This document shows, piece after piece, positions 2,528 to 20,720 of a stretch of 64,000 nt of DNA; position 1 is the first letter of the stretch; each line of letters opens with the position of its first letter. Under the pieces are notes generated by a model that saw only the letters and a list, made by a program, of their open reading frames with translations, did not search any database and was not told the origin of the DNA. The position numbers were made by a program, and so were the translations under genes. The stretch is from a virus: positions 4,010 through 68,009 of the IMG/VR virus record IMGVR_UViG_3300018432_000290. One strand, 5' to 3'.

Positions 2528-2844
2528 GGTGGGGGGCCTCCTGGGTCGGACGGGGGAGCGAACAGCGCCAGCGGATCCGTGGACTCTGGCACTGGGTCAG
2601 GGGCTGGTCCGGGAGCGCGCGCCGGGGGACGCGCGTCCAGGTCTGCGGCGCGGGCCAGCAGCTTGCGGGCCCTGCGCACCAGCTGGTCCTCCAGGTCCGT
2701 CCCGGCCACCTTGGCCGCGTACACGGTGGACGCGATCGCGGCGCCGGCGGCATCGCCCTTCCAGTTGGCCGCGTCCTCCCAGCACGCGCGGGCCAGGGAC
2801 CGGGGGGACACGGGGACCAGCTGGTGCGCGGGGCTCAACCTCAC
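2524..2844 (-). CDS. Hypothetical phage protein
   Basis: GTGA coupling with the bet-like stop; helical Ala-rich product. Confidence 0.55.
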   Translation of the reverse strand: MRLSPAHQLVPVSPRSLARACWEDAANWKGDAAGAAIASTVYAAKVAGTDLEDQLVRRARKLLARAADLDARPPARAPGPAPDPVPESTDPLALFAPPSDPGGPPP

Positions 2845-3854
2845 GAGGCGGGTCCCTCCTCCACCACCTCGGCGTCCTCGGTGGCGTCCTCGCTGGCCGC
2901 GGCCACCAGCAGCGCGGCGTTCTCGATCAGCTTGTCGGCGTCGGCCTCGGTCACCTCCCCGAAGGTGGTGATCTCGCGCTCGAGGATGCGCCCGGCCCAC
3001 GCGTTGCGGTCCCCCACCTGAGCCTTGCGGATCAGGGGGAACAGCTTCTTGGACTGGTCGGCGGTCATGCGCGGGTGGCCGGTGTCGTCGGCGTGGGTGA
3101 CGGGCTCCCCGGTGGGGGCGGGGTCCGCGTGGGGCTCAGGCTCCCCGGCCAGCTCGTCGCTGGTCACCGCGGACTGGGGGGCCCGGGTGGACTCCACGCG
3201 CTCGGCCGGGACGCGCTCGAAGGCCCCGGCCTCGTCCTCGGTGTAGATCCCGGACAGCCGCTGGGGGAAGGCCTTGCGCAGTGCCCCCGCCTCGGCGCAC
3301 TTGCCCAGCATGTGGGCCCCCTTGGTCTTCCACATGCTGGTCAGGGACACCTGGCCCTGCCACGTCTTGGTCTGGGCGAACTCCCGGAACAGCACCACGG
3401 CCCGGATGGGGGCCCGCTTGTCGCTGCGGATCACCCCGCACCGGGCGGCCACCGGGGGGTTCTTGTCGTCCAGCCACACGTCCGTCCAGGCCCCGTCCGG
3501 GCCGCACCACAGAATGTCCTCCTGGCCCAGGTACTGCTCGTGCTCCTCGGCCACGGCCCGGAACCCGTCGATCCCGGTCTGGATGGTGTACTTGGTCTTG
3601 CCCTGCTCCTGGCGCCCGATCATGTAAATCTGGCGGGCGAACGGGTCCAGCCCGGTGCGCTGGCACTGGTGCATGAACACCATCAGGTCGCCCTCGGGGG
3701 CATCGGCCAGCCCCAGCTGGGCCAGGGCGGCCATCTGCATCTTGGTCCAGCTGGTCTGGTCCGAGGACAGGGCCAGCGCGCCCCCGCCGATCACGGCTGG
3801 GGTGGGCGGGGTGGGCGGCCCGTTGGCCTCGGTGGTGGCGACTTCCGTGCTCAC
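2841..3854 (-). CDS. bet: Bet/Redbeta-family single-strand annealing recombinase
   Basis: GLDPFARQIY, IQTGIDGFRAVAE and MLGKCAEAGALRKAFP motifs; adjacent to exonuclease. Confidence 0.9.
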   Translation of the reverse strand: MSTEVATTEANGPPTPPTPAVIGGGALALSSDQTSWTKMQMAALAQLGLADAPEGDLMVFMHQCQRTGLDPFARQIYMIGRQEQGKTKYTIQTGIDGFRAVAEEHEQYLGQEDILWCGPDGAWTDVWLDDKNPPVAARCGVIRSDKRAPIRAVVLFREFAQTKTWQGQVSLTSMWKTKGAHMLGKCAEAGALRKAFPQRLSGIYTEDEAGAFERVPAERVESTRAPQSAVTSDELAGEPEPHADPAPTGEPVTHADDTGHPRMTADQSKKLFPLIRKAQVGDRNAWAGRILEREITTFGEVTEADADKLIENAALLVAAASEDATEDAEVVEEGPAS

Positions 3855-4804
3855 AGGTCCTCCTGGGTGATGGTGTCGAACTCGAAGGCGCCGGCGTCGG
3901 CCGCGCGCTCGTAGGCGTTGAGCTGGTAGTACGGCAGGCCCAGCTCCTGGGGCTCCGGGCTGTACCCGGGCCAGTCGTCCAGCTCCACGCACCGGGCGTA
4001 GGTCATGCGGGCCTGGTGGTTGAGCACCTCACCCCACCCCACCGCGGCCGCGTCCGGGCTGTACACGGCGGCCAGGTACGGGGGCTTCTTCTCCTGGACC
4101 ACCAGCAGGAACTTGGGCAGGGGCGCGCCCGGGCCGCCCAGCCCCAGGCGGACCACCCCGTCGGTGTAGAACGGCCCCTGCTGGTGGTAGCCGTAATCGG
4201 CCATGCTCTTGGCGAAGGCCTGGGGGCTGGCGTCCTCGGTGCTCTTGTAGTCCACCACCAGCTGGCGACGCCCCTCGGGCACGTCCGGCAGCCAGTCCAC
4301 CATCACCCGGCACATCACCCCGGTGGCCGGGTCCCGGTACACCATCACCTGCTCCGCGCGCCCCGGGCGCGACAGCAGCGGCCCGATGGTGGGGTGGGCG
4401 CGCAGCGCGGCGGCCATGGCCTCCACCTGCTCCACGTCCTTGGTCAACAGCGGGGTCATCCCGGCCTGGCGGGCGTCCACGGCCGCGCTCTTGGCGGCCT
4501 TGGTGCGCCAGCTGTCGTGGGGCACCTCCGCGATCTGCATGCCCTGGCCCAGCACCCGGAAGTGGGCACCCCGGCCGAAGTCGAACACCTTGCGGTCCTC
4601 GCGCCCGTGCTGCTGGTCGTACCGGAACCGCGCGGGCGTCTTCCTGATCAGGGTGCGGGCCCCGGTGCTGGACAGCGACCCGCCCTGGACCGGGTCGGCG
4701 TGATACGTGCGCTCGTCCAGGTCGTACACCCCTGGGCTGTCGATCACCACGGGGGCGGGGTCGGGCTCGTCGGCCTCGGTCTCGAACTCCAGCACGTCGG
4801 TCAT
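3851..4804 (-). CDS. RecE/ExoVIII-like PD-(D/E)XK exonuclease (DUF3799-like)
   Basis: YHADP..SLSSTGA, FGRGAH, VVDYKST and YGYHQQGPFY motifs. Confidence 0.85.
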   Translation of the reverse strand: MTDVLEFETEADEPDPAPVVIDSPGVYDLDERTYHADPVQGGSLSSTGARTLIRKTPARFRYDQQHGREDRKVFDFGRGAHFRVLGQGMQIAEVPHDSWRTKAAKSAAVDARQAGMTPLLTKDVEQVEAMAAALRAHPTIGPLLSRPGRAEQVMVYRDPATGVMCRVMVDWLPDVPEGRRQLVVDYKSTEDASPQAFAKSMADYGYHQQGPFYTDGVVRLGLGGPGAPLPKFLLVVQEKKPPYLAAVYSPDAAAVGWGEVLNHQARMTYARCVELDDWPGYSPEPQELGLPYYQLNAYERAADAGAFEFDTITQEDL

Positions 4805-4959
4805 GCCACTCCTTCGTCGTCCAGGCGCGGCCCCAGCAGGTCGCGTCGCTCGTACCGGTTCTCGGCGTCCTGCACGTCCGTGGGGTCCGGTCGCCACAGG
4901 GCCTCGTCGTGACGGCCCTCGGCCACCTGGGCCCGCCACTCGTCGCGCCAGGTGCCCAT
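4801..4959 (-). CDS. Small hypothetical protein
   Basis: MGTWRDEW start coupled at both ends. Confidence 0.5.
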   Translation of the reverse strand: MGTWRDEWRAQVAEGRHDEALWRPDPTDVQDAENRYERRDLLGPRLDDEGVA

Positions 4960-5779: not shown

Positions 5780-6156
5780 GGCGCGTCCACCGGGGTGTCG
5801 TCGTCGGCTGACTCCGGTTCCGGGGCCTGCTCCACCGGTTCCCCGGTGGTCTCGGCCACCAGCTGGGCGGCCTCCTGGAGCGTCAGCGGCACCAGCACCG
5901 GGAAGTCCTCCTCGGCCGGGGCCGGCGCCGGGGGGGCGGGGAACTTCGGGGTGAGCAGCACGTCCACCTCCCCGGTGTCGTGGTCCACCAGCTGGCCCTG
6001 CAGCTCGGTCCTGGTGGGTTCCTCGTCGGGGTCGGCATCCGGGCGCGGCTGGTCGTGGACCAGGAACCGCACCAGCCCGTCCTCGGCGGTCAGGGCGGTC
6101 AGCAACCGCTCTCCGGCGTCGTCGTCCTCTATGCGCAGCACGAACGTGTGGGCCAT
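5776..6156 (-). CDS. Hypothetical acidic protein
   Basis: MAHTFVLRIE start 7 nt after the start-associated motif. Confidence 0.6.
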   Translation of the reverse strand: MAHTFVLRIEDDDAGERLLTALTAEDGLVRFLVHDQPRPDADPDEEPTRTELQGQLVDHDTGEVDVLLTPKFPAPPAPAPAEEDFPVLVPLTLQEAAQLVAETTGEPVEQAPEPESADDDTPVDAP

Positions 6157-6157
6157 G

Positions 6158-6682
6158 TCAGGTCTCCTCGGTGGTGGAGTGGGGGGGCGTGGAGCCCACC
6201 CCGGCATCCCGCGGGGGGCACGGGAGTACCGGGGTGGGCCGCGGCGAGCCATGATGGCCCGCCGCACCGTCCGGTCCCCGGGGGGGTCGGGGTCGGACGG
6301 AGTGGGGGTCCAGCAGGTCCGTGCCCATGGGCAGGATGACGGACACGCTGGCGCGCAGCCCGTGCAGGCGTCCCACGGCGGTGCGCTGGGTGAGGGGCTG
6401 GGTGTCGCTGGGCAGGGTGTGCAGTTCATGGCCGGGGTCCAGGCGCTGCACCCACAGCGCCCACCCGGACTGGTCGGCCAACACCAGGGCCAGGTGGGCC
6501 CCGTCGGCGTGGTGGGTGCGCGCGGTACACGTCTGGGGGGTGGGCAGGTGGGCCTGGTCCACCAGGTCATGGACCAGCTGGTGGGCCGCGCGCAGGGTGG
6601 CCCCCTGGGGTGGGACGTAACGCCCCTCCACGGCCCGGCGCGCGCGGGACTTGCGGGACTCCGCGGACCGGCGGGGGCTCAC
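6158..6682 (-). CDS. Hypothetical protein
   Basis: GTGA coupling with upstream gene; fills the operon gap. Confidence 0.45.
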   Translation of the reverse strand: MSPRRSAESRKSRARRAVEGRYVPPQGATLRAAHQLVHDLVDQAHLPTPQTCTARTHHADGAHLALVLADQSGWALWVQRLDPGHELHTLPSDTQPLTQRTAVGRLHGLRASVSVILPMGTDLLDPHSVRPRPPRGPDGAAGHHGSPRPTPVLPCPPRDAGVGSTPPHSTTEET

Positions 6683-6963
6683 CGCAGCACCGTGTGCCCG
6701 GCCACCACGCCCCGGGCGGACTCCAGGTGGCGCGCGGTGGCGGGCAGGAACGTGGCCCGCCAGCGGTCCCGGCGGTCCGGGTCCACCGGGTCCGCGTACA
6801 CCACCACGTAGAACCGCCCGTCCAGGGACGGCCCCACCACCTGCCCGATGGTGCCGGACAGGTCCGGCGCGCGGTACAGCGCGCACGGGTCTCGACGCGG
6901 GCGCGGACCCGCATCGCAGGGGGCGTGATCGCCGCCCGGTGGGCTATCGTTCGCTACGGCCAT
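6679..6963 (-). CDS. Hypothetical protein
   Basis: Purine-rich RBS with a start-motif variant; first gene after the Cro-like HTH. Confidence 0.55.
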   Translation of the reverse strand: MAVANDSPPGGDHAPCDAGPRPRRDPCALYRAPDLSGTIGQVVGPSLDGRFYVVVYADPVDPDRRDRWRATFLPATARHLESARGVVAGHTVLR

Positions 6964-7057
6964 GTGCTGACCCTCTTCTTCCTCGGTGGTGGGAGAGGTC
7001 GCCGTGGCTTGGCCCGGGACGCCGTCTCTGGGGGTGGCGTCCCGGGCCCCCCAGCGG

Positions 7058-7330
7058 CTATCCGGCGTCGGCGAGCTCGGCCCGGGCCTGGTTGTACACG
7101 TCCAGGAAGGTGGCCGGGGGCACGTCCAGCAGCGCGGCCGCGGCGATCAGCTCCCCGGCCCGCCACGGGGTCTTGCCGTCCAGGCGCCGCCACATGGACT
7201 GGCGCCCCATGCCCAGCTGCTCGGCCAGCTGGTACCCGGTTACTCTCTGGCGCGCCATGGCGGCGCGCACCTCCCCGGCCACGCGTTCGTCCGGCGTGAC
7301 GGGGGCCCTCGGTGGTGTGGGTAGCGTCAT
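7058..7330 (-). CDS. Cro/XRE-like HTH regulator heading the early operon
   Basis: VAGEVRAAMARQRVTGYQLAEQLGMGRQSMWRRLDGKTPW..ELIAAAALLDVPPATFL. Confidence 0.85.
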   Translation of the reverse strand: MTLPTPPRAPVTPDERVAGEVRAAMARQRVTGYQLAEQLGMGRQSMWRRLDGKTPWRAGELIAAAALLDVPPATFLDVYNQARAELADAG

Positions 7331-7501
7331 GGTTCCCCACTAAACACCCTCTCCGGGGGCCCCACCACCACCGGGGGGGTGACCCATGGGGGACCGGATC
7401 TGTGTACCGTATCCGGCCAGGGGATACGTGGGACACGCCTGGCGTGTCCCCGCTTCCTTCACACCACCGGCACCACTTGCCTCACCCCCAGGAGGCCCCA
7501 C
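7331..7501. promoter_or_regulatory. Divergent control region with a 21-bp palindrome
   Basis: GGGACACGCC-T-GGCGTGTCCC at 7430-7450; TACCGT (-10-like) at 7405-7410 flanked by CCGGAT/ATCCGG. Confidence 0.6.
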
Positions 7502-7924
7502 ATGCGGCGTTACTGGTTGCGCCCTGCCCAGCCCACCACCGAGACGCTGCGCTCCGCGGCGTGGGACCACGTTCTGTTACGACTGGGGGCCGACGCGGCC
7601 GCCATGCGCACCCGGTTGGCCGACCAGGTGGTGGCCGACGAGGCCGCGCGCCGCCGTGTGGCACACGCACGGCACACGACGGTGCTGGCATCTGTGGCAC
7701 ACACGGCCCAGCTGGGGGCCACGGTGGACCGGCTGGACCCCCCACCGGACCCCCCCACGGCCCCCATTCCCGGGCTGCCCCAGCAGCCTCCACCGCCCCC
7801 GGAGACCGCCCGGGACCGCCGGCGCCGGCTGCGTCGCCGGGCCGGGGAGCTGGGCATCACCCAACACGGCAAGACCGACCGCCAGCTCGAGGACGAGATC
7901 GCGGCCCTCGCCGGGGAGTCCTGA
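7502..7924 (+). CDS. Hypothetical protein, first gene of the transfer-like operon
   Basis: GGAGG RBS before MRRYWL; TGATG coupling to next gene; basic helical C-terminus. Confidence 0.6.
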   Translation: MRRYWLRPAQPTTETLRSAAWDHVLLRLGADAAAMRTRLADQVVADEAARRRVAHARHTTVLASVAHTAQLGATVDRLDPPPDPPTAPIPGLPQQPPPPPETARDRRRRLRRRAGELGITQHGKTDRQLEDEIAALAGES

Positions 7925-8313
7925 TGTTGTCCAGGCTGTCCGGGCGCGTGTGGTTCGTGCTGCTGTGCGGGGCGCTGGTGCTGGCGGGTGCCCTGGGGGC
8001 GGCCCTGTGGTTCGCGGCGGTGTTCGCCGTGGAGGTGCTGACCTGGCCCGGGGTGGTCACCCTGCTGGCCGCGGAGGCCTGTGTGGCCGTGGGGGCGGTG
8101 CTGGACTACCGGGAGGCCCGCCTGGAGCCCCCCACCCGGCTGGCAGCCTGGCTGGTGGCCCACTACACGGTGGTGCGCCGCGTGTACCGGCGCGGGCGCT
8201 GGGCCGTGGACGGGGTCAAGGCCCGCCGGCGCGCGGCCACCGCCCGGGCCGCGGCCCAGGCCCGGCGTGACGCCGTCGGTGAGGACCAGCAGCGCGGGCG
8301 GGAGGCCGCGTGA
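7924..8313 (+). CDS. Membrane protein (about 2 TM helices)
   Basis: MLSRLSGRVWFVLLCGALVLAG...; coupled to the T4CP start by GTGA. Confidence 0.7.
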   Translation: MLSRLSGRVWFVLLCGALVLAGALGAALWFAAVFAVEVLTWPGVVTLLAAEACVAVGAVLDYREARLEPPTRLAAWLVAHYTVVRRVYRRGRWAVDGVKARRRAATARAAAQARRDAVGEDQQRGREAA

Positions 8314-9833
8314 CCCTGGCCGTGGCCCTGGTGGCGGTGCTGGTCATCGCCGGGGCCATCGCCTCGGTGCGCGCCGGGGCCGGGCGCCCGCGCGGGCTGG
8401 CCCCGGGGTTCGACCTGGTCAAGACCGTCAGCCTGGCCGCGGCCCGGCGCAAGGCCCTGCACACCCGGCCGGGGCTGACCATCAAGCACCGCCCCACGTG
8501 GCTGGGGGGCACCCCGGCCCGGCAGGTGGGCATCGAGTTGTGCCGGTCCGGGTGGCGCTGGCTGTACGCGTCCCTGGAGGACGTGGTGCTCATCTTCGCC
8601 GAGCCCCGGTCCTGGAAGACCGGGCTGCTGTCGGCCCACGTGGTGGACCTGCCCGGGGGCGGGCTGGGCACCAGCACCCGCACCGACCTGTACCTCAACA
8701 CCGTGGAGCACCGGAAGGACCAGGGCCCGGTGCGGGTGTTCAACCCGGAGGGACTGGGGGCCACCATCGGGGTGCCCAACGACGCCCGGTGGGACATGGT
8801 GCGCGGGTGTGACGCCCCCGCCGAGGCCACCATGCGCGCCGGGTACCTGCTGTCCGGGTCGGCCAGCGGGGACAAGGTGTCCGACCGGGGGTACTGGGAG
8901 AGCAACGCCGGTCGCGCCCTGCGCTACCTGCTGTGTGCCGCGGCCCTGTCCGGGGGCTCCATGCACGAGGTGTACGAGTGGGGCCAGACCCTGTCCCAGC
9001 GGGCCCCGGTCTCCATCCTCAAGACCAACCCCGGGGCCCCGCCCGGCTGGGGGGAGGCCCTGGAGTCCTTGCAGGCCCAGGACCCCAAGCCCAAGGGGTC
9101 CGTGAGCGCCACCCTGACCCTGGCCCTGCAGTTCATGGACATACCGGAGCTGGCGTACGCGGCCACCCCGGGGCCGGGGGACGTCGGGCTGGACGTGCCG
9201 GCGTTCATCCTGGGCGGGGGGTTCCTGTACGTCATCGGCACACAGCGGGAGTACGCCCCCCTCACCCCGCTGTTCTCCGCGCTGGTGGGCCACGTGGTGG
9301 AGACGTGCAAGAAGCTGGCCGGGAGCCGGGGTCGGCTGGACCCTCCGTTCGGCCTGATCCTGGACGAGGTGTACAACACCGCCCGGCTGCCGCTGGCCCG
9401 CATCAGCTCCGAGCTCGGCGGCATCGGCGTCCCCATCGTGTGCGCGTTCCAGGGGCTGGACCAGGCCGAGGAGATGCTGGGCGCGGCCGGGGCCGGGACG
9501 CTGTGGACCAACAGCGCCGTGCGCATGGGGGCCGGGGGCAGCGTGCCCAGCCTGGAGAAGCTGTCCACGCTGCTGGGGCACAAGGCTCAGCGCAACCGGC
9601 GCGGGGAGATCGAGCGTTCCCCCGTGCTCACCGCCAGCGAGATCGACCAGCTGGACCCCGGGAAGGCCGTGGTCTACACGCGCGGCAAACCCACCATCGG
9701 CACGGTGCGCCCCATCTGGGAGCGCCGCACCCCGCGGGCCAAGGCGCCCCACCCCCCCACCGGTCCGCTGGCCCCGGTGTACAGCCTGGACGAGCAGCGC
9801 CGGGCCGGGCCCACCACCGAGGTGGGGTCGTGA
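8310..9833 (+). CDS. VirD4/TraG-like type IV coupling protein
   Basis: N-terminal TM anchor; Walker A-like AEPRSWKT; GPVRVFNPEG, YWESNA, Walker B LILDEVYNTARLP, GIGVPIVCAFQGLDQ, LEKLSTLLG, PVLTASEIDQL match actinobacterial T4CP layout. Confidence 0.85.
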   Translation: MTLAVALVAVLVIAGAIASVRAGAGRPRGLAPGFDLVKTVSLAAARRKALHTRPGLTIKHRPTWLGGTPARQVGIELCRSGWRWLYASLEDVVLIFAEPRSWKTGLLSAHVVDLPGGGLGTSTRTDLYLNTVEHRKDQGPVRVFNPEGLGATIGVPNDARWDMVRGCDAPAEATMRAGYLLSGSASGDKVSDRGYWESNAGRALRYLLCAAALSGGSMHEVYEWGQTLSQRAPVSILKTNPGAPPGWGEALESLQAQDPKPKGSVSATLTLALQFMDIPELAYAATPGPGDVGLDVPAFILGGGFLYVIGTQREYAPLTPLFSALVGHVVETCKKLAGSRGRLDPPFGLILDEVYNTARLPLARISSELGGIGVPIVCAFQGLDQAEEMLGAAGAGTLWTNSAVRMGAGGSVPSLEKLSTLLGHKAQRNRRGEIERSPVLTASEIDQLDPGKAVVYTRGKPTIGTVRPIWERRTPRAKAPHPPTGPLAPVYSLDEQRRAGPTTEVGS

Positions 9834-10018
9834 GGCCCCCGTACCTGGCGCTGCTGCTGCTGGGGGCGGTGCTGGGCAGCTGGGCATGGCAGGTCCCGGC
9901 GTTCGGGGCCATCTTCTGGCCGCTGGTGCTCACGCTGTCGATCTGGCTGTGGGCCGACTACTTCCGCTCGGCGGCACGCCGCCGCCGGCGGGGACACCAC
10001 AGGAGGAGTCATGGCTGA
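9830..10018 (+). CDS. Small two-TM membrane protein
   Basis: GTGA coupling; hydrophobic core and basic tail. Confidence 0.6.
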   Translation: MRPPYLALLLLGAVLGSWAWQVPAFGAIFWPLVLTLSIWLWADYFRSAARRRRRGHHRRSHG

Positions 10019-10187
10019 GGACGGGTTCCTGGCCGCCGTGGGCGGGGCCCTGGTGGCCATCGCCACGCTGGGGATGGTGCGCGAGGACGACGCGGCCCCG
10101 GGCGGTGGGGACGTGGGCACCCCCGTGATGCGCCACCGGGTGGAGTCCCTGGACGGGCGCGACACGGTCGAGGACGGGGTTTCATGA
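10011..10187 (+). CDS. Small membrane-anchored protein (58 aa, below ORF-track cutoff)
   Basis: AGGAGGAG RBS, MAEDGFLAAVGGALVAIATLG, ATGA overlap with next gene. Confidence 0.6.
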   Translation: MAEDGFLAAVGGALVAIATLGMVREDDAAPGGGDVGTPVMRHRVESLDGRDTVEDGVS

Positions 10188-10588
10188 ACGCCGCCCGGTC
10201 CCGCGCCGGTGACCCGGACCAGCTGTCCCTGGACCTCACCGGGGACGGGGACGACGCCCCCACCGTCCACCAGGTGGGCGCGGTGTACGCCATCCGCAAC
10301 CGGCTGGGCATCGGCCACAGCCGCTACCGCCTGGACTGGGTGCACGTCCACCCGCTCAACCACTGGCACAACCCCGGCGGCTACGTCACGTGCGCCCTGA
10401 CCCTGCTGGGTGGGATCGGCGGGGCCATGGTGGGCCCGGAGCACCTGGTCCCCGCCCAGTACGAAGGCCAGAGCACCTGGACCATGAGGAAGCCGGCCCC
10501 CCACCTGGGCACCCACTGCCGCTGGGCCGAGCAGGAGCAGCAGACGGCGGACCGCATCCAGGCCGAGCGCGCGGGGAGCACCCCGTGA
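10184..10588 (+). CDS. Hypothetical protein
   Basis: Coupled at both ends; normal composition. Confidence 0.6.
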   Translation: MNAARSRAGDPDQLSLDLTGDGDDAPTVHQVGAVYAIRNRLGIGHSRYRLDWVHVHPLNHWHNPGGYVTCALTLLGGIGGAMVGPEHLVPAQYEGQSTWTMRKPAPHLGTHCRWAEQEQQTADRIQAERAGSTP

Positions 10589-10860
10589 CCACGTGGGACA
10601 GGGACAGCGCCGCCCCCCACACCCACGTGGGGCTGTTGGGCCAGACGTTCTCCTGCACGTGCTGCTGCCCGGACCCCCCTCCCACCCCCCGCGAGAACCC
10701 GGGCGGGTCCGGCAGCGGGGACGGCAGGGGGTGGCTGGAGGCCGTGGGCACCGCGGTCGCGGTGCTGGGCACGCTGGGGTGGTACCGGGGGGACCCGGAG
10801 CCCCCGCCCGTGCCCGAGCGCGCCGAGCTCGAGCGCGCCGAACCGGAGGACCAGCGGTGA
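10585..10860 (+). CDS. Hypothetical protein with Cys cluster and one TM
   Basis: GTGA overlaps at both ends; CTCCC and hydrophobic AVGTAVAVLGTLGW. Confidence 0.5.
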   Translation: MTTWDRDSAAPHTHVGLLGQTFSCTCCCPDPPPTPRENPGGSGSGDGRGWLEAVGTAVAVLGTLGWYRGDPEPPPVPERAELERAEPEDQR

Positions 10861-11351
10861 GCGGCAACGGGGACCGCCCCGCGGACCGCATGCTGCGCGG
10901 GCGGGTGGATGAGCTGGACCGGGACCTCCAGGTCACCCGCGCGGCGGTCAAGGCGCTGTCGGAGAGCATCACGGCCATGGCCGTCCAGGCCGCGCGGGTG
11001 CGTCCCATCCACTGGCCGGACCTGCCCAACGACCAGCACGCCGCCCGGTACACGGAGCTGCTGGCCTGGATGCGGGAGGTGCTGGTGGAGCGCTACCCGT
11101 TCGACGCGGAAGCCCTCACCCCGTGCTGGTGGCGCCACCCCACGGCCGTGGACCTGCTCACCGCGGCCTGGCAGAGCTGGACGGCGGTGTACCGCAACCC
11201 CGCGGCCAGCGTGGACCGCCAGGTGACGTGGCAGCACACCACGCGCCCCACCACCACGTTCCAGCTACGGCTGGCACTGAGCAACTGTTCCGGGGCCAAG
11301 CACGTGGACGACCCCCACCAGCCGGAGCTGGTCACGGGGGCCTGGGGGTAG
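10857..11351 (+). CDS. DUF4913-like protein
   Basis: Coiled coil then LLAWMREVL..PCWWRHPTAVDLLTAAWQSW, resembling a family seen beside actinobacterial T4CP/relaxase genes. Confidence 0.65.
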   Translation: MSGNGDRPADRMLRGRVDELDRDLQVTRAAVKALSESITAMAVQAARVRPIHWPDLPNDQHAARYTELLAWMREVLVERYPFDAEALTPCWWRHPTAVDLLTAAWQSWTAVYRNPAASVDRQVTWQHTTRPTTTFQLRLALSNCSGAKHVDDPHQPELVTGAWG

Positions 11352-11352
11352 C

Positions 11353-11586
11353 TCACACGGTGCGGTCCGTGGGATCCAGGAACACCACCGGCACGGGGGT
11401 GCCCGGCTCGATCAGGGCCACCACCAGCTCCCCGTTCCCGGCCAGGGCCAGCACCTGGTGGCGTCGCTTGCCGTCCGAGCACGGCACCGCCCTGCTGACC
11501 AGGTCCACCACCAGTGCCTGGCCGCCCCACTGGATGGAATCCAGGCAGTGCAGCTGATCAGGCAGCAGGTGGCGGACCGTGGCCAT
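11353..11586 (-). CDS. Hypothetical protein
   Basis: MATVRHLLP start coupled to upstream stop; convergent with the transfer operon. Confidence 0.55.
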   Translation of the reverse strand: MATVRHLLPDQLHCLDSIQWGGQALVVDLVSRAVPCSDGKRRHQVLALAGNGELVVALIEPGTPVPVVFLDPTDRTV

Positions 11587-11912
11587 CAGGCGTCGTCCTC
11601 CTGCTCGGGCACGTGGCCGGACAGGTTGACCGGGCACCCGGGGTTCAGGTCCTCCGCGTCCCGCCACACCCCGTCCCACTCCAGGGCGGCCGAGCAGTGG
11701 TGGCAGGTCCCGGTCAGGGGGTCACCCTCCGGGTTCCACCCCGGCGGCATGTAGGTCAGCCAGAACCGCATCCCCAGTCGGGTGATCTCCGAGAACGCCC
11801 CCCGCACGTCCCCCAGCTCCGTCCGGGCCCGGTCCTCGATCTCCTCCCGCTCGGCCCGGGTGATGCGGGCGCGCGGCATGGGTTCCCGGCGTTCGGTGTC
11901 CCTGGGCATCAC
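11586..11912 (-). CDS. Hypothetical protein with CxxC
   Basis: Protein-like composition; CHHC motif; start uncertain. Confidence 0.55.
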   Translation of the reverse strand: MMPRDTERREPMPRARITRAEREEIEDRARTELGDVRGAFSEITRLGMRFWLTYMPPGWNPEGDPLTGTCHHCSAALEWDGVWRDAEDLNPGCPVNLSGHVPEQEDDA

Positions 11913-12266
11913 CCACCACCTCCTCGAGCGTCCCGGCCAGCCCGCACCGTTCCCACCACACGCGCACCTGGAAGCTGGCCACCACGGCCACCGCCCACGG
12001 CACCACCACCAGCACCAGCCCCAGCCCCAGCGCCACCAGCGCCGACGCCTTGGCCATGTCCGGCATGGTCTCCCTGGGGGAACTCACATCTGCGGCACCG
12101 CGCCCCGTCCGGCCAGGATTGGGTCTCGCGCTGCCAGCGGTCCGGCAACGCCACCAGGCGGATACCGCACTGGGTCCACACCACCCCGGTGGTGATGTGC
12201 CACGGCCCCGGGGTGATGGAGTGCTGGCCGCGGGGGCGCCGGCTGGCGCGCACGTACAGCGTGGGC

Positions 12267-12572
12267 TCAGTGCTGGCCACAGCGCACCTCCGCGACGTCC
12301 GGGGCCCACTGGGGGTCCCAGCCCGGGATGGTGTGGCGGTGTCCGTAGGCCAGCAGGCGCACCACGTGGACCAGCACGTTGGAGTCCGGGTCCCCGGCCG
12401 GCAGCTGGGCGATCCGGCCGGCGCACACCCCGGCGATGGCCTGCTCGGCGGCCACCCGGGCGGTGTCCCGGTCGTCCGCGGCCTCGGTGCCCAGCTCGGT
12501 CAGCGTGTTGTGGACGTCGGCCAGCCAGCACGCCAGCCTGGACGGCACCTGGTACGGCTCACCCCTGGCCAC
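12267..12572 (-). CDS. Hypothetical protein
   Basis: Protein-like composition in a minus-strand gene string. Confidence 0.5.
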   Translation of the reverse strand: MARGEPYQVPSRLACWLADVHNTLTELGTEAADDRDTARVAAEQAIAGVCAGRIAQLPAGDPDSNVLVHVVRLLAYGHRHTIPGWDPQWAPDVAEVRCGQH

Positions 12573-13347
12573 GGCGCACCGCTTCCGGGCAGTCGCTGGC
12601 GTGCTGGCTGGTGCTGGCCCCGCACACGTCGCACGTGGGCATGGTTCGGACCAGCGGCACCCGGTCCCGGTCCCCCGGCATGGTGGGACACATGCCGGGG
12701 GTGGGGCACAGGCAGTCCCGGTCGATGTGGCGGGCCTTGGTCTCGGCCACGTACATGGCCTCGGTGGCGGTGTGGTGCCCCACCCCGCTCATGTACCGGT
12801 GCCCGCCCTCGGTCCAGGCCGTCCAGCCCCAGCGCAGCATGGGACCCCCGGCGCGCACCTCCAGCACGGCACCACCGGCCAGCACCTTGACGTAGCGCTC
12901 CGGGGCGTCCGGGTCGTGGGTGACCGACACCCACTCCGCCCCGCGGATGGCGTCCCCCTGCTGGACGGTCAGGGCCGCCACGCCGGCGCGCAGCCCCAGC
13001 CCCAGTGCCACCGCGTCCGCGATGTGCTCGGCGCTCATCCCGGCGGTGGCCGCGGCGCGCACCGCCTCGGTGATCCCCCCGGCGAGCTCGCCGTCCAGGG
13101 GGTCCGGCAGCTGGCGCCCGAACCCGTCGTGCGTCACCTCCGGGTACCCGTCCGGGTCGTGCCCGCCGTCGTGCCCGGCCGGGCGGTAGCAACCCCACCC
13201 GGAGTCGGTCTGGACACCGCAGCGCTCCACCGCCGGTGGCAGGGCCACGGTGGGCTCGTAGTCCGGCACGGGGCCGGGGTCGTGGTCGTCCAGCGGCGGG
13301 TCCCAGGGGGCCCGGTGGCTGGCGTTGCTCTTGGCGTCGTCGGTCAT
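12559..13347 (-). CDS. Hypothetical Cys/His-rich protein
   Basis: Start motif at 13357-13368; several CxxC and GHDGGH motifs. Confidence 0.6.
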   Translation of the reverse strand: MTDDAKSNASHRAPWDPPLDDHDPGPVPDYEPTVALPPAVERCGVQTDSGWGCYRPAGHDGGHDPDGYPEVTHDGFGRQLPDPLDGELAGGITEAVRAAATAGMSAEHIADAVALGLGLRAGVAALTVQQGDAIRGAEWVSVTHDPDAPERYVKVLAGGAVLEVRAGGPMLRWGWTAWTEGGHRYMSGVGHHTATEAMYVAETKARHIDRDCLCPTPGMCPTMPGDRDRVPLVRTMPTCDVCGASTSQHASDCPEAVRRGQG

Positions 13348-13368
13348 GGGTCGGCTCTCCTCGGTGGT

Positions 13369-13716
13369 TCAGGGCTTGAAGGTCTCGGCGGTGGTGCGCA
13401 CCCACTCCGGGGCGGACTCCCACGGCAACGTCCAGCGGGACTGCTCCCCGTCCTCCGGGTCCGGAGGGGCCCAGGCGATGGTGCCGCTCTCCGGGCCCAT
13501 GCACGTCACGTAGGCGCGGTCCAGGCGCCACTGGACGGCGTCGTACAGGTCCCGCTCGTAGGTGATCGTCAGCAGGTTGGGGGTGATGCGGCGCACCGGG
13601 GCGTTGGGGTCCCGGCCGGTGTCCTGGGCCCGCGGGATGGACATGGTGGGGGCGGCGCGCAGGCGCAGGTACAGGGTGTGCGTCTCCACGCGCCCGTACG
13701 GTTCGGCGATGGTCAT
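13369..13716 (-). CDS. Hypothetical protein
   Basis: MTIAEPYG start after a start-motif variant. Confidence 0.6.
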   Translation of the reverse strand: MTIAEPYGRVETHTLYLRLRAAPTMSIPRAQDTGRDPNAPVRRITPNLLTITYERDLYDAVQWRLDRAYVTCMGPESGTIAWAPPDPEDGEQSRWTLPWESAPEWVRTTAETFKP

Positions 13717-13721
13717 GGGGC

Positions 13722-14108
13722 TCAGCTCTCCTCGGTGATGCGGCGGGGCGCCGGCGTGGGGGTCCACGCGGCGTAGCTGGCGGGCAGCTCCAGCCCCTGG
13801 GGGCTGGCCGTGATGGCCACCCGGGCCTGGGCACACACCTGGCGGCGGGCGCGGCGGCGCGCTCGAGCGCGGCACCACCAGGCCACCACGCGGGCCCAGC
13901 GCTGGGGCCAGGTCAGGGACCCGGCGTGCTGGGCCACGTCCACCACCGCCCGGGCCAGCATCACGGCCCCGGCCACGGCCAGGACGGCCACAGCGGCCAG
14001 CAGGTAGACGACGGCCACGGTGGCGCCCAGCAGCGCGCCGGCGACGGCCACCACCGACACAGCGGCCAGGACGGGTGGACTGGGGCAGTGCTGGGGACAG
14101 TGGGGCAT
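13722..14108 (-). CDS. Membrane protein
   Basis: Start-motif variant; long hydrophobic region. Confidence 0.55.
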   Translation of the reverse strand: MPHCPQHCPSPPVLAAVSVVAVAGALLGATVAVVYLLAAVAVLAVAGAVMLARAVVDVAQHAGSLTWPQRWARVVAWWCRARARRRARRQVCAQARVAITASPQGLELPASYAAWTPTPAPRRITEES

Positions 14109-14111
14109 GGG

Positions 14112-14465
14112 TCAGCTCTCCTCGGTGGGTGGGTCGATCAGGTGCCAGCCGCCCAACAGCCGCTCGGCGATGCGGGCGGCCAGCACGTCCGGATAGGCGT
14201 CCAGGTAGCCCCGGCACGCGCTCTGGCCCAGCTCCGGGTGGGTCCCGTAGCTCAGCGTCATGTGGCAGGTGAGCACCCCACCGGACTGGGGCAGCCCCTC
14301 CAGCTCCGGCAGGCGGATGCCGCGGTTGTGGTCCACCAGCTCCCCCAGGCGCCCCGGACGCAGCCGCATGGGGTTGCCCGGCCGGAACACGCACGTGGCG
14401 CACTTCCGGGCCATGGCCTGGGGTAGTCCGGTGTCCGGGTGGAACACCGGGCCCTGCCCGGTCAT
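14112..14465 (-). CDS. Hypothetical Cys-containing phage protein
   Basis: CATCVFRPGN..LTCH..ACRGY; ATGA coupling. Confidence 0.6.
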   Translation of the reverse strand: MTGQGPVFHPDTGLPQAMARKCATCVFRPGNPMRLRPGRLGELVDHNRGIRLPELEGLPQSGGVLTCHMTLSYGTHPELGQSACRGYLDAYPDVLAARIAERLLGGWHLIDPPTEES

Positions 14466-14662
14466 GCCAGCTCGTCTCGGCGGTAGTCCTTCCACAGGGT
14501 GTCCACGCTCATGGACTGGGTGCGGCGGGACGTCGAACGCTTCACCTGCACGCGGGTGCCGTCGTCGGTCACCTCCACGATGCGCAACCGGCGCCACGTC
14601 TCGCGGCGCCCGTGCCACACCTGGTCCGGCTGGGGGCGGTCCCCCTTGCGGCGAGTGGTCAC
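14462..14662 (-). CDS. Small basic beta-rich protein
   Basis: PDQVWHGRRETWRRLRIVEV; coupled at both ends. Confidence 0.5.
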   Translation of the reverse strand: MTTRRKGDRPQPDQVWHGRRETWRRLRIVEVTDDGTRVQVKRSTSRRTQSMSVDTLWKDYRRDELA

Positions 14663-14831
14663 CGGAACCCCCTCCACTCGTGCGGGACGGGACGACCCTG
14701 CTCGCGCAGCAGGGCGGTCAGGGCGCCGGTTAGCACCGGCCACGCGCGGGCCAGCTCGGCCAGGGCGGCACGGTGGGCCGCCGGGCAGCGTCCGGGGTTC
14801 TCCACCGCGGCCAGGACGCGGGCCACGGCGG

Positions 14832-15377
14832 TCACGACGCCACCGCCCTGCGCAGCTCGGCCAGCCCGCGGGCACACCGGGACTTCACCGTCCCCACCGG
14901 CACCCCCAGCCACACGGCCACGTCCACCTGGGGGACGCCGTCGTGGTGGACCAGCACCACCACGTCCAGGCGGTCCGGGGCCAGTAGCTCGAGGAGCGCG
15001 GTCACGTCCTTGCGGCACTCCACGGTGGCCAGCCCCGGGTCCTCCCGGGCCTCCCGCTCCCCCAGCTCGTCCAGCTGGGCCACCACGCGGGGACGCCTGC
15101 CGAAGGTGCGCAGGTGGGTGTACACCACGCTGGACGTCACGGTGTACAGCCAGGACCGGAACGATGCCCGGCCCGCCCACGTGTGCACGCTGTGCAGCAG
15201 GCGCACCGCCACCTCCTGGGTCATGTCGTCGGCGTCCCGGCTGGCGCGCCCCAGCAGGTGGTGGGCCACGTTGTGCACGTAGCGCTGGTGGCGGGTCCAC
15301 AGCTCGGCGAAGGCGTCGGGGTCCCCGGCGGCGTACGCGGCCACCAGCGCCGCGTCGTCGCGCTCCAGGGGGCTCAC
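14832..15377 (-). CDS. ECF-family RNA polymerase sigma factor
   Basis: DAALVAAYAAGDPDAFAELW, DADDMTQE, FRSWLYTV (region 2); VAVWLGVPVGTVKSRCARG (region 4). Confidence 0.9.
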   Translation of the reverse strand: MSPLERDDAALVAAYAAGDPDAFAELWTRHQRYVHNVAHHLLGRASRDADDMTQEVAVRLLHSVHTWAGRASFRSWLYTVTSSVVYTHLRTFGRRPRVVAQLDELGEREAREDPGLATVECRKDVTALLELLAPDRLDVVVLVHHDGVPQVDVAVWLGVPVGTVKSRCARGLAELRRAVAS

Positions 15378-15673
15378 GACGTCCCTGCCCGGTGGCCGGC
15401 CGCGCGCTGCACGCGCCCGGGCATGCCGTGGAGCACGTGTCCGAAGTAGTCGGCCACGTCCATCTGAGCGTCCAGCAGCACGCGGTGGGCGCGGTCCACG
15501 GCGGAGCTGCGCACCTCCCCGCGGCGGGCTGCGGCCTCGGCGTCGTCGCGGGCCGTGCGCGCGGCCTCGGCGGTGGCGCACAGCATGGCGGCGTGCCCGT
15601 CCCCGATGCACAGGGGCAGGAACTCCCGCACCTGTCCGGCGCTGGGGGTGGGGGCGGTCTGGTCGGTGTCCAT
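15374..15673 (-). CDS. Hypothetical protein
   Basis: Start motif upstream; GTGA coupling to the sigma gene. Confidence 0.6.
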   Translation of the reverse strand: MDTDQTAPTPSAGQVREFLPLCIGDGHAAMLCATAEAARTARDDAEAAARRGEVRSSAVDRAHRVLLDAQMDVADYFGHVLHGMPGRVQRAAGHRAGTS

Positions 15674-15748
15674 GTCTCTCCTCGGTGGTGGAACGGAGCC
15701 TGGAACCCCGCCGCCCGGGGTCGCCGGGCGACGGGGAGTCTGGCGGGG

Positions 15749-16213
15749 TCAGGACTGGAGCGCGGCGCGGGCGGCGTCGGTGATGGGCACGACGCGCAGC
15801 ATCTGGAAGGACACCCCGCGGAACCCGGCCACGGACTCCGAGCCCCCCAGCGGCACCACGGTGGCCCGGCCCCCGTCGGCCTTGATCGCCACGAACAGGC
15901 CGCGCTGGGCCTCCCGGGTGGGGGAGGTGAACACCACCACGGATCCCAGGGTCACGCGGCCCCCGGCGGCGGCCAGCTCGGCCATGCGGGCGCGGGCGCG
16001 GGCGGCGGTGTCGGAGTCCACGCGCTCGAACAGCTCCGGGGCCCCCGCGATACCACGGCCCCCCTCCACGGGGTCCACGGCCAGCCTGCGGCGGCTCCCA
16101 CCCGGGATGGCGGTCACCACGAACAGGGGGTCGCCCTCGCCGGGGCGCCGGGCCTCCGGCAGGAGGTGGACGACGTCACCCACGGCGTGGGCGGGAATGG
16201 TCTGTGCTGGCAT
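15749..16213 (-). CDS. Hypothetical protein
   Basis: Start motif 5 nt upstream of ATG. Confidence 0.65.
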   Translation of the reverse strand: MPAQTIPAHAVGDVVHLLPEARRPGEGDPLFVVTAIPGGSRRRLAVDPVEGGRGIAGAPELFERVDSDTAARARARMAELAAAGGRVTLGSVVVFTSPTREAQRGLFVAIKADGGRATVVPLGGSESVAGFRGVSFQMLRVVPITDAARAALQS

Positions 16214-16306
16214 GGCTGCTCCTCGGTGGTGGAGTCCTCGACCGTCCTGGCCGGGGGCGCCGTCCCCGGGCCCGTGGCGTGGCGGGTCCGGGGGCGACGC
16301 TCCCGG

Positions 16307-17341
16307 TCAGGCCGGGGTGGGCTGGAACAGCTTCCAGGCGGTGGCCTTGACGGCGTCGCTGCCACCCACCAGGGAACGGGCGGCGCGGGCACGCTCCGGG
16401 GTGCCGTGGTCCCGGGTCTGGACCGCGGCGTGCCAGTCCAGGTACTCGGTGATCACGTTGTACCCGGCCCAGGCGGTCCCGCGCACCGTGGCCTGCTGGC
16501 TACCGTCCTGCAACAGCGCGACCAGCTGGTCCATCTTGGCCTTGTCGTTGGCCTTGGCCCGGTCGGTCAGGTCCTTGTCCCCGCCGGGGCGAATGATCTG
16601 CTTGGCCTTGATCTCGAACTCCCCGGTGGTCATGGGGGTGTTGACCATGCGCTCCGCGCCGGTCTGGAACTCCTCGAACCACTCGGAGGTCAGGCCCAGG
16701 TGCTTGCGGGCCTCGGCGATCTGCTGGGTGGCCTTCTCGGTGTGGCGCACCTTGTAGATCCCGTCGTTGCACCGCATGGCGGCGCGCTCGGTGTTGCCGC
16801 ACACCACCCGGATCGGGGTCACGGCGGTGGTGAACGCGGAGCTGCCGTCGTGGCTGTTCAGGCAGGCCACGTACAGGTCCACGCGGTCCACCCCGCCCAC
16901 CTGCACGCTGCGCGGCAGCTTGGCCGTGATGAACACCCGGCGCCCGTGGTCCAGGCTCCCCCCGGTCTCCAGCGTGGCCCCGCCCTCGGCCACCAGGGTC
17001 TGGAGGTAGGTGGCGTGGGCCTCGTTCTGGATGGGGGTGTACCAGCTCCCCACCGTGCCCAGCTTCTCCATCTGGCCGGTGAAGGGGCTTGTGCGCACCA
17101 CGGTGCGCTCCGTGTCGTCCACCAGCGGGACCGTGGTGCCGTTCTCCAGCATCACGTGGGCCACGCTGGGCAGCGCGCGCACGTCCCAGCCCCCCAGGTA
17201 CGCGGTGCGCATCAGCTCGTCGGGATCCATCAGGCCGTCGGTCACGGTCCCGAGACCGTGCCAGCCGGGTCGCACGGCGGCGGCAAAGCTGGTGACGACG
17301 GTCCCGTCGGCGGTGGTGTTCTGTTCCAACTCGTGGGCCAT
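16307..17341 (-). CDS. DUF932-family phage/plasmid protein
   Basis: YTPIQNE, LETGGSLDHGRRVFI, LNSHDGSSAF, TPIRVVCGNT, GTAWAGYNVITEYLDW. Confidence 0.85.
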   Translation of the reverse strand: MAHELEQNTTADGTVVTSFAAAVRPGWHGLGTVTDGLMDPDELMRTAYLGGWDVRALPSVAHVMLENGTTVPLVDDTERTVVRTSPFTGQMEKLGTVGSWYTPIQNEAHATYLQTLVAEGGATLETGGSLDHGRRVFITAKLPRSVQVGGVDRVDLYVACLNSHDGSSAFTTAVTPIRVVCGNTERAAMRCNDGIYKVRHTEKATQQIAEARKHLGLTSEWFEEFQTGAERMVNTPMTTGEFEIKAKQIIRPGGDKDLTDRAKANDKAKMDQLVALLQDGSQQATVRGTAWAGYNVITEYLDWHAAVQTRDHGTPERARAARSLVGGSDAVKATAWKLFQPTPA

Positions 17342-17410
17342 GATGCGGTCCTCCTGGGGGTGAGGTCCCCGGTCCTTCCGGGGGGGCGTTCGTGTTCCAC
17401 ACTACGGGTC

Positions 17411-17439
17411 CCCCCCGTTGTGTGCCACACATCGGGGGG
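17411..17439. promoter_or_regulatory. 29-bp near-perfect palindrome centred on GTGTGCCACAC
   Basis: CCCCCCGTTGTGTG-C-CACACATCGGGGGG, one mismatch; TAGTGT -10-like hexamer on the minus strand at 17404-17399. Confidence 0.65.
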
Positions 17440-17528
17440 GACCGGGTCTGTACCGTGACCTGCCAGAACATGGCCCAACCCCCCGACACTCCGGTGTCGA
17501 GGGGCTGGGCCGGGCGGGGCCGGGGGGC

Positions 17529-18815: not shown

Positions 18816-19243
18816 GGCGTGCTCCTCGGTGGTGTCGCGCGGCGCGGGTCTGGGGTCCGCGTCCATATGTGACACACTACGGTCCTGCACGGCCGAGACC
18901 ACCTGCACCGTGCGGCACGGCCGATCGTGACCGAGCCGTTGCGGGCGGCTACACGCGCCGGGGTTCCGGCGCCGGCGGCGGCGCCGGTGCCGACCGTCCC
19001 TTTCCCGCCGGGTGGTTCCACCGGCTCAGGTCCCGGGCCAGCTGCTCCACCACCTTGTCCGGGTCGCAGCGGCAGAACAGCCTGGGGGTCACGCACATCG
19101 TGCACACGTCGTCCATGGGGGGGTGCCTCCGGGGTCTGGGGAGACTGCTGGGGGGCCCACTGGTGGACCCCCGTTCCGGCCGAATGAGGGTACCCGCGCA
19201 GCGGGTGGACGAGCCGGCCGCCGCCCACGCCGGCGGCGGCCGG

Positions 19244-19585: not shown

Positions 19586-19688
19586 GGGCGCGGACGGTAG
19601 CCCCACCCACGGACACCGCGGACACGACGAGGCCCCCCACCGCGCAGGTGGGGGGCCGATCGTCACCGGGCCGAGACCGGAGCGTGAC

Positions 19689-20242: not shown

Positions 20243-20302
20243 GGTGGGCTCCTCGGTGGTGGAGTGGGAGGGGGGGCCGGTGTCCCGGCCCCCCCGGGGT
20301 TC

Positions 20303-20660: not shown

Positions 20661-20720
20661 ATATGCCCCGGATCGGCCCCCCGGCACTGGGGCCGGGGGG
20701 CGGGTCCGCGGGGCGGGGGG

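Follow-up and report, generated by a model that had tools for sequence, protein, structure and literature searches.

A coupling-protein operon faces a Cro-position HTH gene in an actinobacterial siphovirus with a MobF relaxase

Which genes stand opposite a Cro-type regulator when the neighboring operon is not the usual repressor cassette? This question is raised by positions 7058–11351 of a 64,000-nt stretch of viral DNA (the window), which comprises bases 4010–68009 of the 68,009-bp IMG/VR viral contig IMGVR_UViG_3300018432_000290. All coordinates are those of the window. A small helix-turn-helix (HTH) gene heads a leftward operon at this locus, and an operon containing a type IV coupling protein (T4CP) gene departs rightward from the other side of a short spacer. 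The first-pass annotation proposed a switch between lysis and conjugation with the transfer genes expressed in the carrier state. The main elements that it described were confirmed where it placed them, and its proposal is supported in part, for the position of the operon; a conjugation switch is an overstatement. The answer that we favor, with a confidence a little short of even, is that the phage carries a mobilization module, and that transcription of its T4CP half starts in the early control region and runs opposite to that of the lytic genes.

The DNA belongs to a phage, a novel siphovirus of soil actinobacteria with a high GC content. The genes were called by codon usage, which gave about 98 open reading frames (ORFs) on the contig, and their proteins were scanned with Pfam and PHROG. 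The full siphovirus late module (TerS, TerL, portal, protease, HK97 capsid, adaptors, major tail protein, a 1669-aa tape measure protein, minor tail proteins and lysin) identifies a tailed phage of the Caudoviricetes, siphovirus type; its core from TerS to lysin lies at 31.9–60.2 kb. TerL is 54% identical to the TerL of Mycobacterium Kostyavirus phages. Only four proteins, all for head or packaging, are in common with Mycobacterium phage Bask21, and the phage is therefore new. The GC content of the window is 73.6%, and the contig is classed as linear with an estimated completeness of 84%, leaving about 16% of the genome unseen. The phage backbone genes are nearly all on the minus strand. Two plus-strand islands interrupt them, the T4CP island at 7502–11351 and the relaxase island at 24071–31041.

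The leftward side of the locus has the layout of a phage early region. Its first gene (7058–7330, minus strand) encodes a 90-aa HTH regulator that matches phrog_4583, 'transcriptional repressor' (8.3e-16), and scores 23.8 bits against Pfam HTH_31, under the cut-off of 27. Farther along the same strand are a RecE-like PD-(D/E)XK exonuclease (3851–4939; phrog_412 2.2e-87, DUF3799 4.1e-16) and a RecT-family annealing protein (2841–3992; Pfam RecT 1.5e-29, phrog_2780 3.3e-66, best PHROG 'RecT-like'). The first-pass annotation described this operon as a Cro-like HTH gene followed by exonuclease, Bet and initiator. The HTH gene and the exonuclease stand, the Bet protein belongs to the RecT family, and no replication initiator was found in the operon, where the ORF at 725–1978 has only a phage zinc-finger domain by Pfam and PHROG. 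Ten nucleotides past the HTH stop codon is a minus-strand hairpin (7011–7048) with perfect 13-bp arms and a 12-nt loop. Its RNA fold has a free energy of −44 kcal/mol (z −3.81), and none of 200 shuffles was as stable. The hairpin is a candidate terminator or attenuator, and its position resembles that of a terminator after cro. Since it directly follows the HTH gene, the 'operon' may be interrupted at this point.

The homologues of the HTH protein indicate what normally faces it. A tblastn search matched 96 phage records at 38–45% identity, nearly all of them Mycobacterium, Gordonia or Arthrobacter phages, and the genomic contexts of seven were inspected. In six (Butters gp39, Guacamole gp41, JustASigh gp47, Karkharias gp39, Nandita gp44 and Raymond7 gp33) the early operon begins with the homologue. 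The divergent partner in all six is an HTH gene, annotated as a repressor in four, that adjoins or lies near a tyrosine integrase gene. A RecE-like gene is downstream of the homologue in Butters and JustASigh, and RecT is also found in JustASigh. The seventh context, in Pipp, belongs to the weakest match and has a different arrangement. The expectation that the slot opposite cro holds the repressor and lysogeny module thus survives in 6/7 actinophage contexts. Because these homologues diverge from a repressor-type HTH gene near an integrase, the T4CP operon of the window occupies the slot of the repressor/integrase cassette, the "lysogeny slot". In one respect the layout agrees with a Cro-CI type switch: a small HTH gene is the first early gene and faces the opposite operon across a short spacer. 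The immunity switches of Butters (gp38/gp39), Guacamole (gp40/gp41) and JustASigh (gp46/gp47) share with the window a homologous HTH protein and a short divergent spacer. They differ in having a repressor and an integrase where the window has an orphan helical protein of 140 aa and the T4CP block.

The rightward operon begins with the orphan, which is in the 'cI position' (7502–7924, plus strand); AGGAGG lies 6 nt ahead of its ATG at 7502. It belongs to no Pfam, PHROG, NCBIfam or PADLOC family and has zero similarity to the repressors of Butters, Guacamole and JustASigh. A single distant relative (P0048, E 2.8e-07) was found among 1.84 billion representative proteins. Both proteins have an N-terminal AWDHxLL helix and a C-terminal LGITQHGK(T/S)D motif. 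No genomic context for the relative was found in scans of metagenome and genome contigs, the plasmid collection held no match to the 140-aa protein, and an Atlas search returned only weak Rho_N/SAP-like rows under the threshold. Its AlphaFold2 model (pLDDT 85) has helices at residues 13–78, 103–117 and 126–138 with a proline-rich linker after the 65-residue helix; the two short C-terminal helices make up the part with the LGITQHGK(T/S)D motif. The 140-aa protein could be a dimeric DNA-binding protein.

The T4CP cluster predicted for the rightward operon is confirmed. A small membrane protein of 129 aa (7924–8313, plus strand; hydrophobic segments at residues 5–62) precedes a 507-aa coupling protein of the VirD4/TraG family (8310–9833, plus strand) that exceeds the Pfam cut-offs for both TraG-D_C (44.5 bits, cut-off 22) and T4SS-DNA_transf (23.8 bits, cut-off 20.1). 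The 44 T4CP homologues collected have the same Pfam domains, and the best non-self matches are 42–43% identical. The Walker B motif DPPFGLILDE is kept. One N-terminal transmembrane (TM) helix (residues 1–25, Kyte-Doolittle) serves as the membrane anchor; many T4CPs have two. The P-loop, PRSWKT at residues 99–104 (8604–8621), has tryptophan in place of the glycine of GK[ST]. Among 42 homologues compared at this site, 38 have GK[ST], two have FKT, and the two with WKT are the window protein and its closest relative (P0002).

The operon continues on the plus strand with a 58-aa TM peptide (10011–10187), proteins of 134 aa (10184–10588) and 91 aa (10585–10860), all three from the gene calls, and a DUF4913-like protein of 164 aa (10857–11351; 24.3 bits, cut-off 25). 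Homologues of the last protein directly follow the T4CP gene in a phage contig (G003), a plasmid (H1) and a plasmid-like contig (L052), and stand beside a T4CP match in two further loci (L012 and L017). The ORFs of the island are all intact, with a phage-like GC content at third codon positions (GC3) of 0.84–0.97. No PHROG family was found for the six island proteins scanned. A reading of the island as a defense system was dropped, as no island protein has a PADLOC match. A bounded-insertion signature was also sought; no flanking direct repeats occur around 7331–11352. A single base separates the stop codon of the T4CP operon (11349–11351) from that of the convergent minus-strand gene (11353–11355), and no terminator intervenes, so that leftward transcription of the 23.8–11.35 kb block would enter the T4CP island antisense.

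The relaxase that completes the module is encoded elsewhere. The first-pass annotation placed the transfer operon at the switch, which holds for the T4CP half and not for the relaxase at 26251–31041, which has its own promoter-like site. The gene (plus strand) encodes a 1596-aa MobF (TrwC-type) relaxase-helicase (TrwC 3.1e-44, AAA_30 8.1e-34, NCBIfam MobF 142.7 bits with a cut-off of 100). Its catalytic motifs are intact, with the tyrosines of GGYY...AAYE and the histidine motif HHTSRDRDPQLHVHV, and a superfamily 1B (SF1B) helicase domain forms the C terminus. The T4CP and the relaxase are both genuine, being over curated cut-offs, and judged by their sequences they look active. A basic protein of 80 aa without a family (26012–26254, plus strand) overlaps the relaxase gene at GTGA, an arrangement for translational coupling, and is a candidate relaxosome accessory protein. 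A LuxR/GerE-type HTH regulator (25362–25724, plus strand; Pfam GerE 5.6e-11) lies upstream of the operon. Between the relaxase and the convergent late and lysis genes is a hairpin with 13-bp arms (31052–31083), a candidate bidirectional terminator. A 78-aa protein (19244–19480, minus strand) is a scattered piece of the same module; it is 41% identical (E 1.5e-09) to the product of the 114-aa gene directly after the relaxase in L052.

The non-coding leader of the relaxase operon (25735–25970, plus strand) contains a promoter-like site, TTGACC-N16-TACAGT, at 25942–25970. At 25735–25763 are two tandem copies of GTCTGTCCTAGG and an inverted copy, a 12-mer with no other exact copy in the window. 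This repeat cluster is the best candidate in the window for an origin of transfer (oriT). The relaxase gene itself contains repeats toward its 3′ end. The 12-bp palindrome GTCACGCGTGAC stands in tandem five times at 30106–30174, where it encodes a VTRD repeat, and is followed by an 18-bp palindrome, CGCGTTACGCGTAACGCG (30337–30354), and an AT-rich patch, AATAATATTT (30388–30410), which is unusual in a 74% GC genome. The repeats at 30106–30410 could be an embedded cis site (iterons, an origin of replication or oriT) or only a peptide repeat.

The idea that the module is self-conjugative was examined by six-frame searches of the full 68,009-bp contig. Neither a VirB4-like AAA_10 domain nor FtsK/TraB was matched at E 0.01 or better in this 84% complete contig. 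For this reason the module would support mobilization by a helper at most, and the word 'conjugation' in the first-pass annotation was too strong.

The nearest relatives of the module are on plasmids or a plasmid-like contig. No T4CP homologue is present in 50,697 deposited phage records, and the relaxase has only two fragmentary matches there; the transfer module is therefore not routine phage cargo. In contrast, the T4CP has 464 matches in plasmid records, all below 60% identity, and the best are 31–35-kb Streptomyces plasmids with the order DUF2637-T4CP-x-MobF. The nearest relative of the module is the metagenomic contig L052, to which the relaxase is 49.5% identical (over 1356 aa), the T4CP 43%, the membrane protein 38% and the DUF4913-like protein 34%. 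The L052 membrane protein gene is likewise directly upstream of the T4CP gene. At L052:1886–4966 the neighbors are ParA with a ribbon-helix-helix (RHH) protein, a Phd/PIN pair and a Phd/ParE pair, three toxin-antitoxin-type pairs being counted in all. These neighbors make the context plasmid-like, and no phage gene occurs in the 17 kb examined. L052 has no homologues of the HTH protein or the 140-aa protein, which sets the limits of the plasmid-type block at 7924–11351 and assigns the 140-aa gene to the phage side.

The actinobacterial MOBF and T4CP plasmid modules, represented by L052 and the Streptomyces chartreusis plasmid NZ_CP108823.1, have the same gene set as the window: a membrane protein, a T4CP, a DUF4913-like protein and a MobF relaxase-helicase. 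Identity to the window proteins is 30–36% for NZ_CP108823.1 and reaches 49.5% for L052. In L052 the two operons, for T4CP and for relaxase, lie side by side and converge, whereas the window module lies in a tailed-phage genome in three pieces (7924–11351, 19244–19480 and 26012–31041) and has no ParA or toxin-antitoxin neighbors. Unlike the plasmid modules, the T4CP operon of the window begins at a phage early control region.

The combination of phage and transfer genes is not confined to this contig. When IMG/VR was scanned by alignment, T4CP relatives with 30–37% identity turned up at 12 loci, among which TrwC was found in six records, the PF04860 portal in five and the HK97 capsid in four. 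The TerL_nuclease family was tried as a phage marker and failed (0/12 over the cut-off); PHROGs then showed TerL in G009 and G001. The G003 contig (69 kb) encodes portal, capsid, tape measure protein and a lysin 48% identical to that of the window, along with T4CP, DUF4913-like protein and relaxase. G009 (72 kb) and G001 (55 kb) encode TerL, portal, capsid and tape measure or tail proteins by PHROGs, and both have T4CP and relaxase. G009 also has a serine integrase, exonuclease, primase/polymerase and RusA. In G003 and G009 the gene order is late operon, lysin, transfer module on the opposite strand, divergent gene and integrase. Several divergent actinobacterial phages thus have the transfer module in their lysogeny region, where it is a recurrent feature. 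G001 (L006:5194–5349), G003 (L008:12273–12480) and G009 (L014:12243–12381) share a conserved non-coding element in the interval that separates the DUF4913-like gene from the genes preceding the relaxase. With AGATC-rich repeats and the inverted repeat CACACCG...CGGTGTG, this element is a candidate oriT of these three phages.

The gene divergent from the T4CP operon is NUDIX in G009 (L014), HTH-NUDIX in G003 (L008) and GntR/UTRA in three further loci (L007, L009 and L013). Actinomycete conjugative elements have kor/pif-type control, with the GntR protein KorSA and the NUDIX protein Pif of pSAM2. The same two types thus face the T4CP operon in related viral loci, whereas the window has no GntR or NUDIX gene and a phage Cro-type HTH gene stands in that place. 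A regulator facing the T4CP operon looks like the rule, and the phage Cro type appears only in the window. G003 also has a cI-like HTH_31 gene upstream of the integrase, separate from the T4CP block, which is a distinct unit. A relative with cI at this place and the T4CP block as a bounded insertion is what the first-pass annotation had named as contrary to its proposal; G003 comes close to that arrangement and is only a distant relative.

The divergent control region between the two operons (7331–7501) is 171 bp long, one base longer than first described, and contains the perfect 21-bp palindrome reported at 7430–7450, a 10+1+10 sequence GGGACACGCC-T-GGCGTGTCCC. It is the sole match in the 64 kb, even when three mismatches are allowed. 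Shuffled sequences gave a mean of 0.05 matches, with at least one match in 5/100 shuffles. Perfect palindromes are enriched in the window about eightfold, 33 with arms of at least 10 being listed compared to 3.95 in Markov simulations. Most of them have loops of 4–8 nt and are at gene ends; the palindrome at 7430–7450 is unusual in having a 1-nt centre and a position between divergent starts. It is a candidate operator. A second dyad, CGTATCC-N7-GGATACG (7408–7428), abuts the palindrome and is unrelated to it. The only −10-like hexamers in the spacer are TACCGT (7405, plus strand) and TACGGT (7411, minus strand). Because the dyads overlap these hexamers, a protein bound at 7408–7450 could affect both promoters.

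These features suggest how the locus might work. The HTH gene starts the leftward early operon, followed by the hairpin and then the RecE and RecT genes. The side on which the immunity repressor and integrase normally lie has the 140-aa helical protein and then a plasmid-derived block of membrane protein, T4CP, small genes and DUF4913-like protein. The block is part of a module of the small actinobacterial plasmid kind, completed by the MobF operon (26012–31041), the LuxR-type HTH gene and the 78-aa gene. The HTH protein, probably with a second factor, would bind the dyads at 7408–7450, which overlap the candidate back-to-back promoters. Were it to bind there, early lytic transcription and transcription of the T4CP operon would be opposed, and the position of its gene suggests that the HTH protein would shut off the T4CP operon during lytic growth. 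When the lytic operon is quiet, the T4CP and the relaxase could nick an oriT and pass the phage DNA on to a type IV secretion system (T4SS) present in the same cell. Transfer would need the separately controlled relaxase operon, an oriT, for which the leader repeats are the best candidate, and a helper T4SS in the host. A bolder reading is that a set of actinobacterial siphoviruses has a MOBF-T4CP mobilization module in the lysogeny region, and that in this phage, where the T4CP operon would have replaced the repressor-integrase cassette, the 171-bp region would decide between lytic growth and conjugative hitch-hiking. We regard this bolder reading as doubtful.

Several observations weigh against a phage-borne mobilization module controlled from the early region. 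The relaxase gene is 15 kb from the T4CP operon in a separate transcription unit with its own promoter-like site, and for this reason the spacer alone cannot switch 'transfer' on. The two spacer dyads are unrelated to each other and neither is repeated elsewhere in the window, whereas classic switches have multi-operator arrays. No consensus sigma-70 promoter was found in 6800–12200. The substitution of tryptophan for glycine in the P-loop makes the ATPase activity of the T4CP uncertain. The first-pass annotation advised looking beyond the window for cI, integrase or parA, and searches of the whole contig for Phage_integrase, Resolvase, AAA_31 (ParA), S24 peptidase and HTH_3 found none. An integrase is present at the actinophage switches and was not found across the 68 kb of this phage. 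The phage might be lytic and the T4CP operon just an early or middle gene set. No close relatives of the phage backbone were found, and a search of sequencing runs for this DNA matched one DNA run and no RNA run.

The idea that the module has been taken over for phage DNA metabolism was considered. The relaxase-helicase would start rolling-circle replication or process concatemers, with the T4CP-like ATPase as its motor or partner, and the operon opposite the Cro-like gene would be just another early unit. The ORFs called on the contig include no recognizable DNA polymerase, primase, replicative helicase or initiator family, in contrast to G009 with its primase/polymerase. The relaxase has a full SF1B helicase domain, and the non-canonical P-loop of the T4CP fits a changed role. 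The membrane anchor of the T4CP and its membrane-protein neighbor are the same as in plasmid modules, however, and suit export rather than replication. The modules of G003 and G009 have integrases beside them and run counter to the lytic genes on the other strand, and G009 keeps its module despite having its own primase/polymerase. On balance, a role in DNA metabolism is unlikely.

The module may instead be incidental cargo, a recently captured and rearranged plasmid fragment at a former immunity-cassette site that is uncoupled from the HTH gene, with the palindrome serving the early promoter only. We consider this improbable to a similar degree. The plasmid-like nature of the nearest relative fits such a capture, as do the lack of PHROG families for the six island proteins, the absence of flanking direct repeats, and the division into three pieces of a module that is contiguous in L052, G001, G003 and G009. 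The state of the genes does not fit it. The ORFs are all intact with phage-like GC3, the relaxase motifs are preserved, and four divergent tailed phages keep such a module. No relative exceeds 49.5% identity to the module, which means that the capture was not recent.

It is also possible, with a still lower likelihood, that the palindrome at 7430–7450 is not an operator. It would then act either as the inverted repeat of an oriT recognized by the MobF relaxase or, in the leader of the T4CP operon, as an attenuator hairpin. The sequence can form a stable single-strand fold (−25 kcal/mol, z −4.66), and oriT regions are often between divergent transfer genes. A 15-nt sequence identical to the core of the palindrome occurs at L052:451–465, within 650 bp of non-coding DNA in the nearest relative of the module; this is a weak lead. 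The 13-nt core is weakly enriched, with three occurrences in 728 kb of loci compared to 0.48 expected, and 1/60 simulations reached three. Two of these three copies, however, fall within coding sequence and do not extend into a longer palindrome. The candidate oriT that G001, G003 and G009 share has no counterpart in the window, where only 24 loose, scattered matches were found. The leader of the relaxase operon, with its direct and inverted repeats, offers a better candidate, and a 1-nt centre is typical of a protein-binding dyad.

A contig made by a second assembler (Logan; 12,038 bp, depth 10.5) spans 5849–17886 with zero differences and is contiguous across both T4CP-island junctions; the neighboring contigs have depths of 10.5–11.3. 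It comes from the single matching DNA run, which may be the source sample. An assembly chimera that joined phage and plasmid DNA from one soil sample is thus very improbable even for a metagenomic contig contained in one run, since a second assembly bridges the region at the depth of its neighbors, the transfer genes alternate with phage genes across four junctions, and the combination recurs in contigs from other samples.

A phage-borne mobilization module would place this phage beside several known elements. Integrative and mobilizable elements that have a relaxase and their own T4CP without a pore have been reviewed (PMC5704250, PMC5357655). They resemble the window in having relaxase and T4CP in the absence of VirB4 or a mating pore, an absence that implies dependence on a helper T4SS. 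These elements are not viruses, whereas the window phage encodes a complete set of virion and lysis proteins. Phage-plasmids and their derivatives, such as P1 and N15, have been surveyed by Pfeifer and Rocha (PMC7969092, PMC10879196), and the phages surveyed were screened for conjugation genes (PMC7969092). Phage-plasmids are hybrids of phage and plasmid functions, as is the window phage. In the latter no plasmid replication or partition genes were recognized, the plasmid part is a transfer module, and the virion genes are intact. Phi1207.3 of Streptococcus pyogenes is called a 'conjugative prophage' and is reported to move by conjugal transfer (PMC4260502), which is the likeness to the phage proposed here. 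It belongs to a different phylum. The window phage joins a known kind, the hybrid mobile elements that need a helper for transfer. A word search of the open-access literature, supplements excluded, found no description of a tailed actinophage with a MobF relaxase and a VirD4-type T4CP.

Phages are regarded as one route of gene flow and conjugative or mobilizable elements as another, with differing host ranges and barriers. A tailed phage with intact relaxase and T4CP would have two exits from the cell and could reach hosts that lack its receptor. If the bolder reading is correct, the same genome can leave in virions or, with the lytic genes off, as single-stranded DNA through the type IV secretion system of a neighbor. 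The presence of the module in four divergent metagenomic phage contigs, and of the T4CP in 0/50,697 deposited phage genomes, points to an overlooked lifestyle in soil Actinobacteria. A T4CP operon wired to a Cro-type control region is a concrete place where the choice of route could be made.

Other searches with parts of the locus gave little. A DNA search of 7000–12000 against phages found no match, and the T4CP alone found none in a scan of viral contigs and species genomes. The HTH protein matched a single weak locus among viral contigs. The 13 loci with exonuclease relatives have only the exonuclease in common with the window, plus RecT matches in two (L023 and L047).

The middle block (11.35–23.8 kb, minus strand) encodes a nuclease, a DUF932 protein and an ECF-type sigma factor by Pfam. 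The DUF932 protein of this 12.4-kb block (11353–23756) matches 506 phage and 118 plasmid records. Its homologues on large Streptomyces plasmids (plasmid matches H76–H83) are about 1–5 kb from a record end. The phage-encoded ECF-type sigma-70 factor (14832–15611; Sigma70_r2 2.9e-14) could drive middle or late transcription independently of the HTH region. Perfect hairpins with 9–16-bp arms are arranged in series between small minus-strand genes at 19212–22706, and another strong perfect hairpin is between convergent genes at 24463–24499. Searches of the window for tRNA genes and Rfam families found none.

The late and packaging block (31.1–63.9 kb, mostly minus strand by Pfam and PHROG) includes a 7-deazaguanine/queuosine-type cluster beside the packaging genes (60173–63947), composed of GTP cyclohydrolase I (FolE), a radical-SAM QueE-like protein, QueD and a TGT/DpdA-like protein. 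The cluster probably serves DNA modification against restriction. A protein with a ParB-like nuclease domain follows it and adjoins the packaging genes. Within the tape-measure gene, about eight copies of a 138-nt repeat (46 aa) at 46103–47199 coincide with a local dip in GC content to 65.8%.

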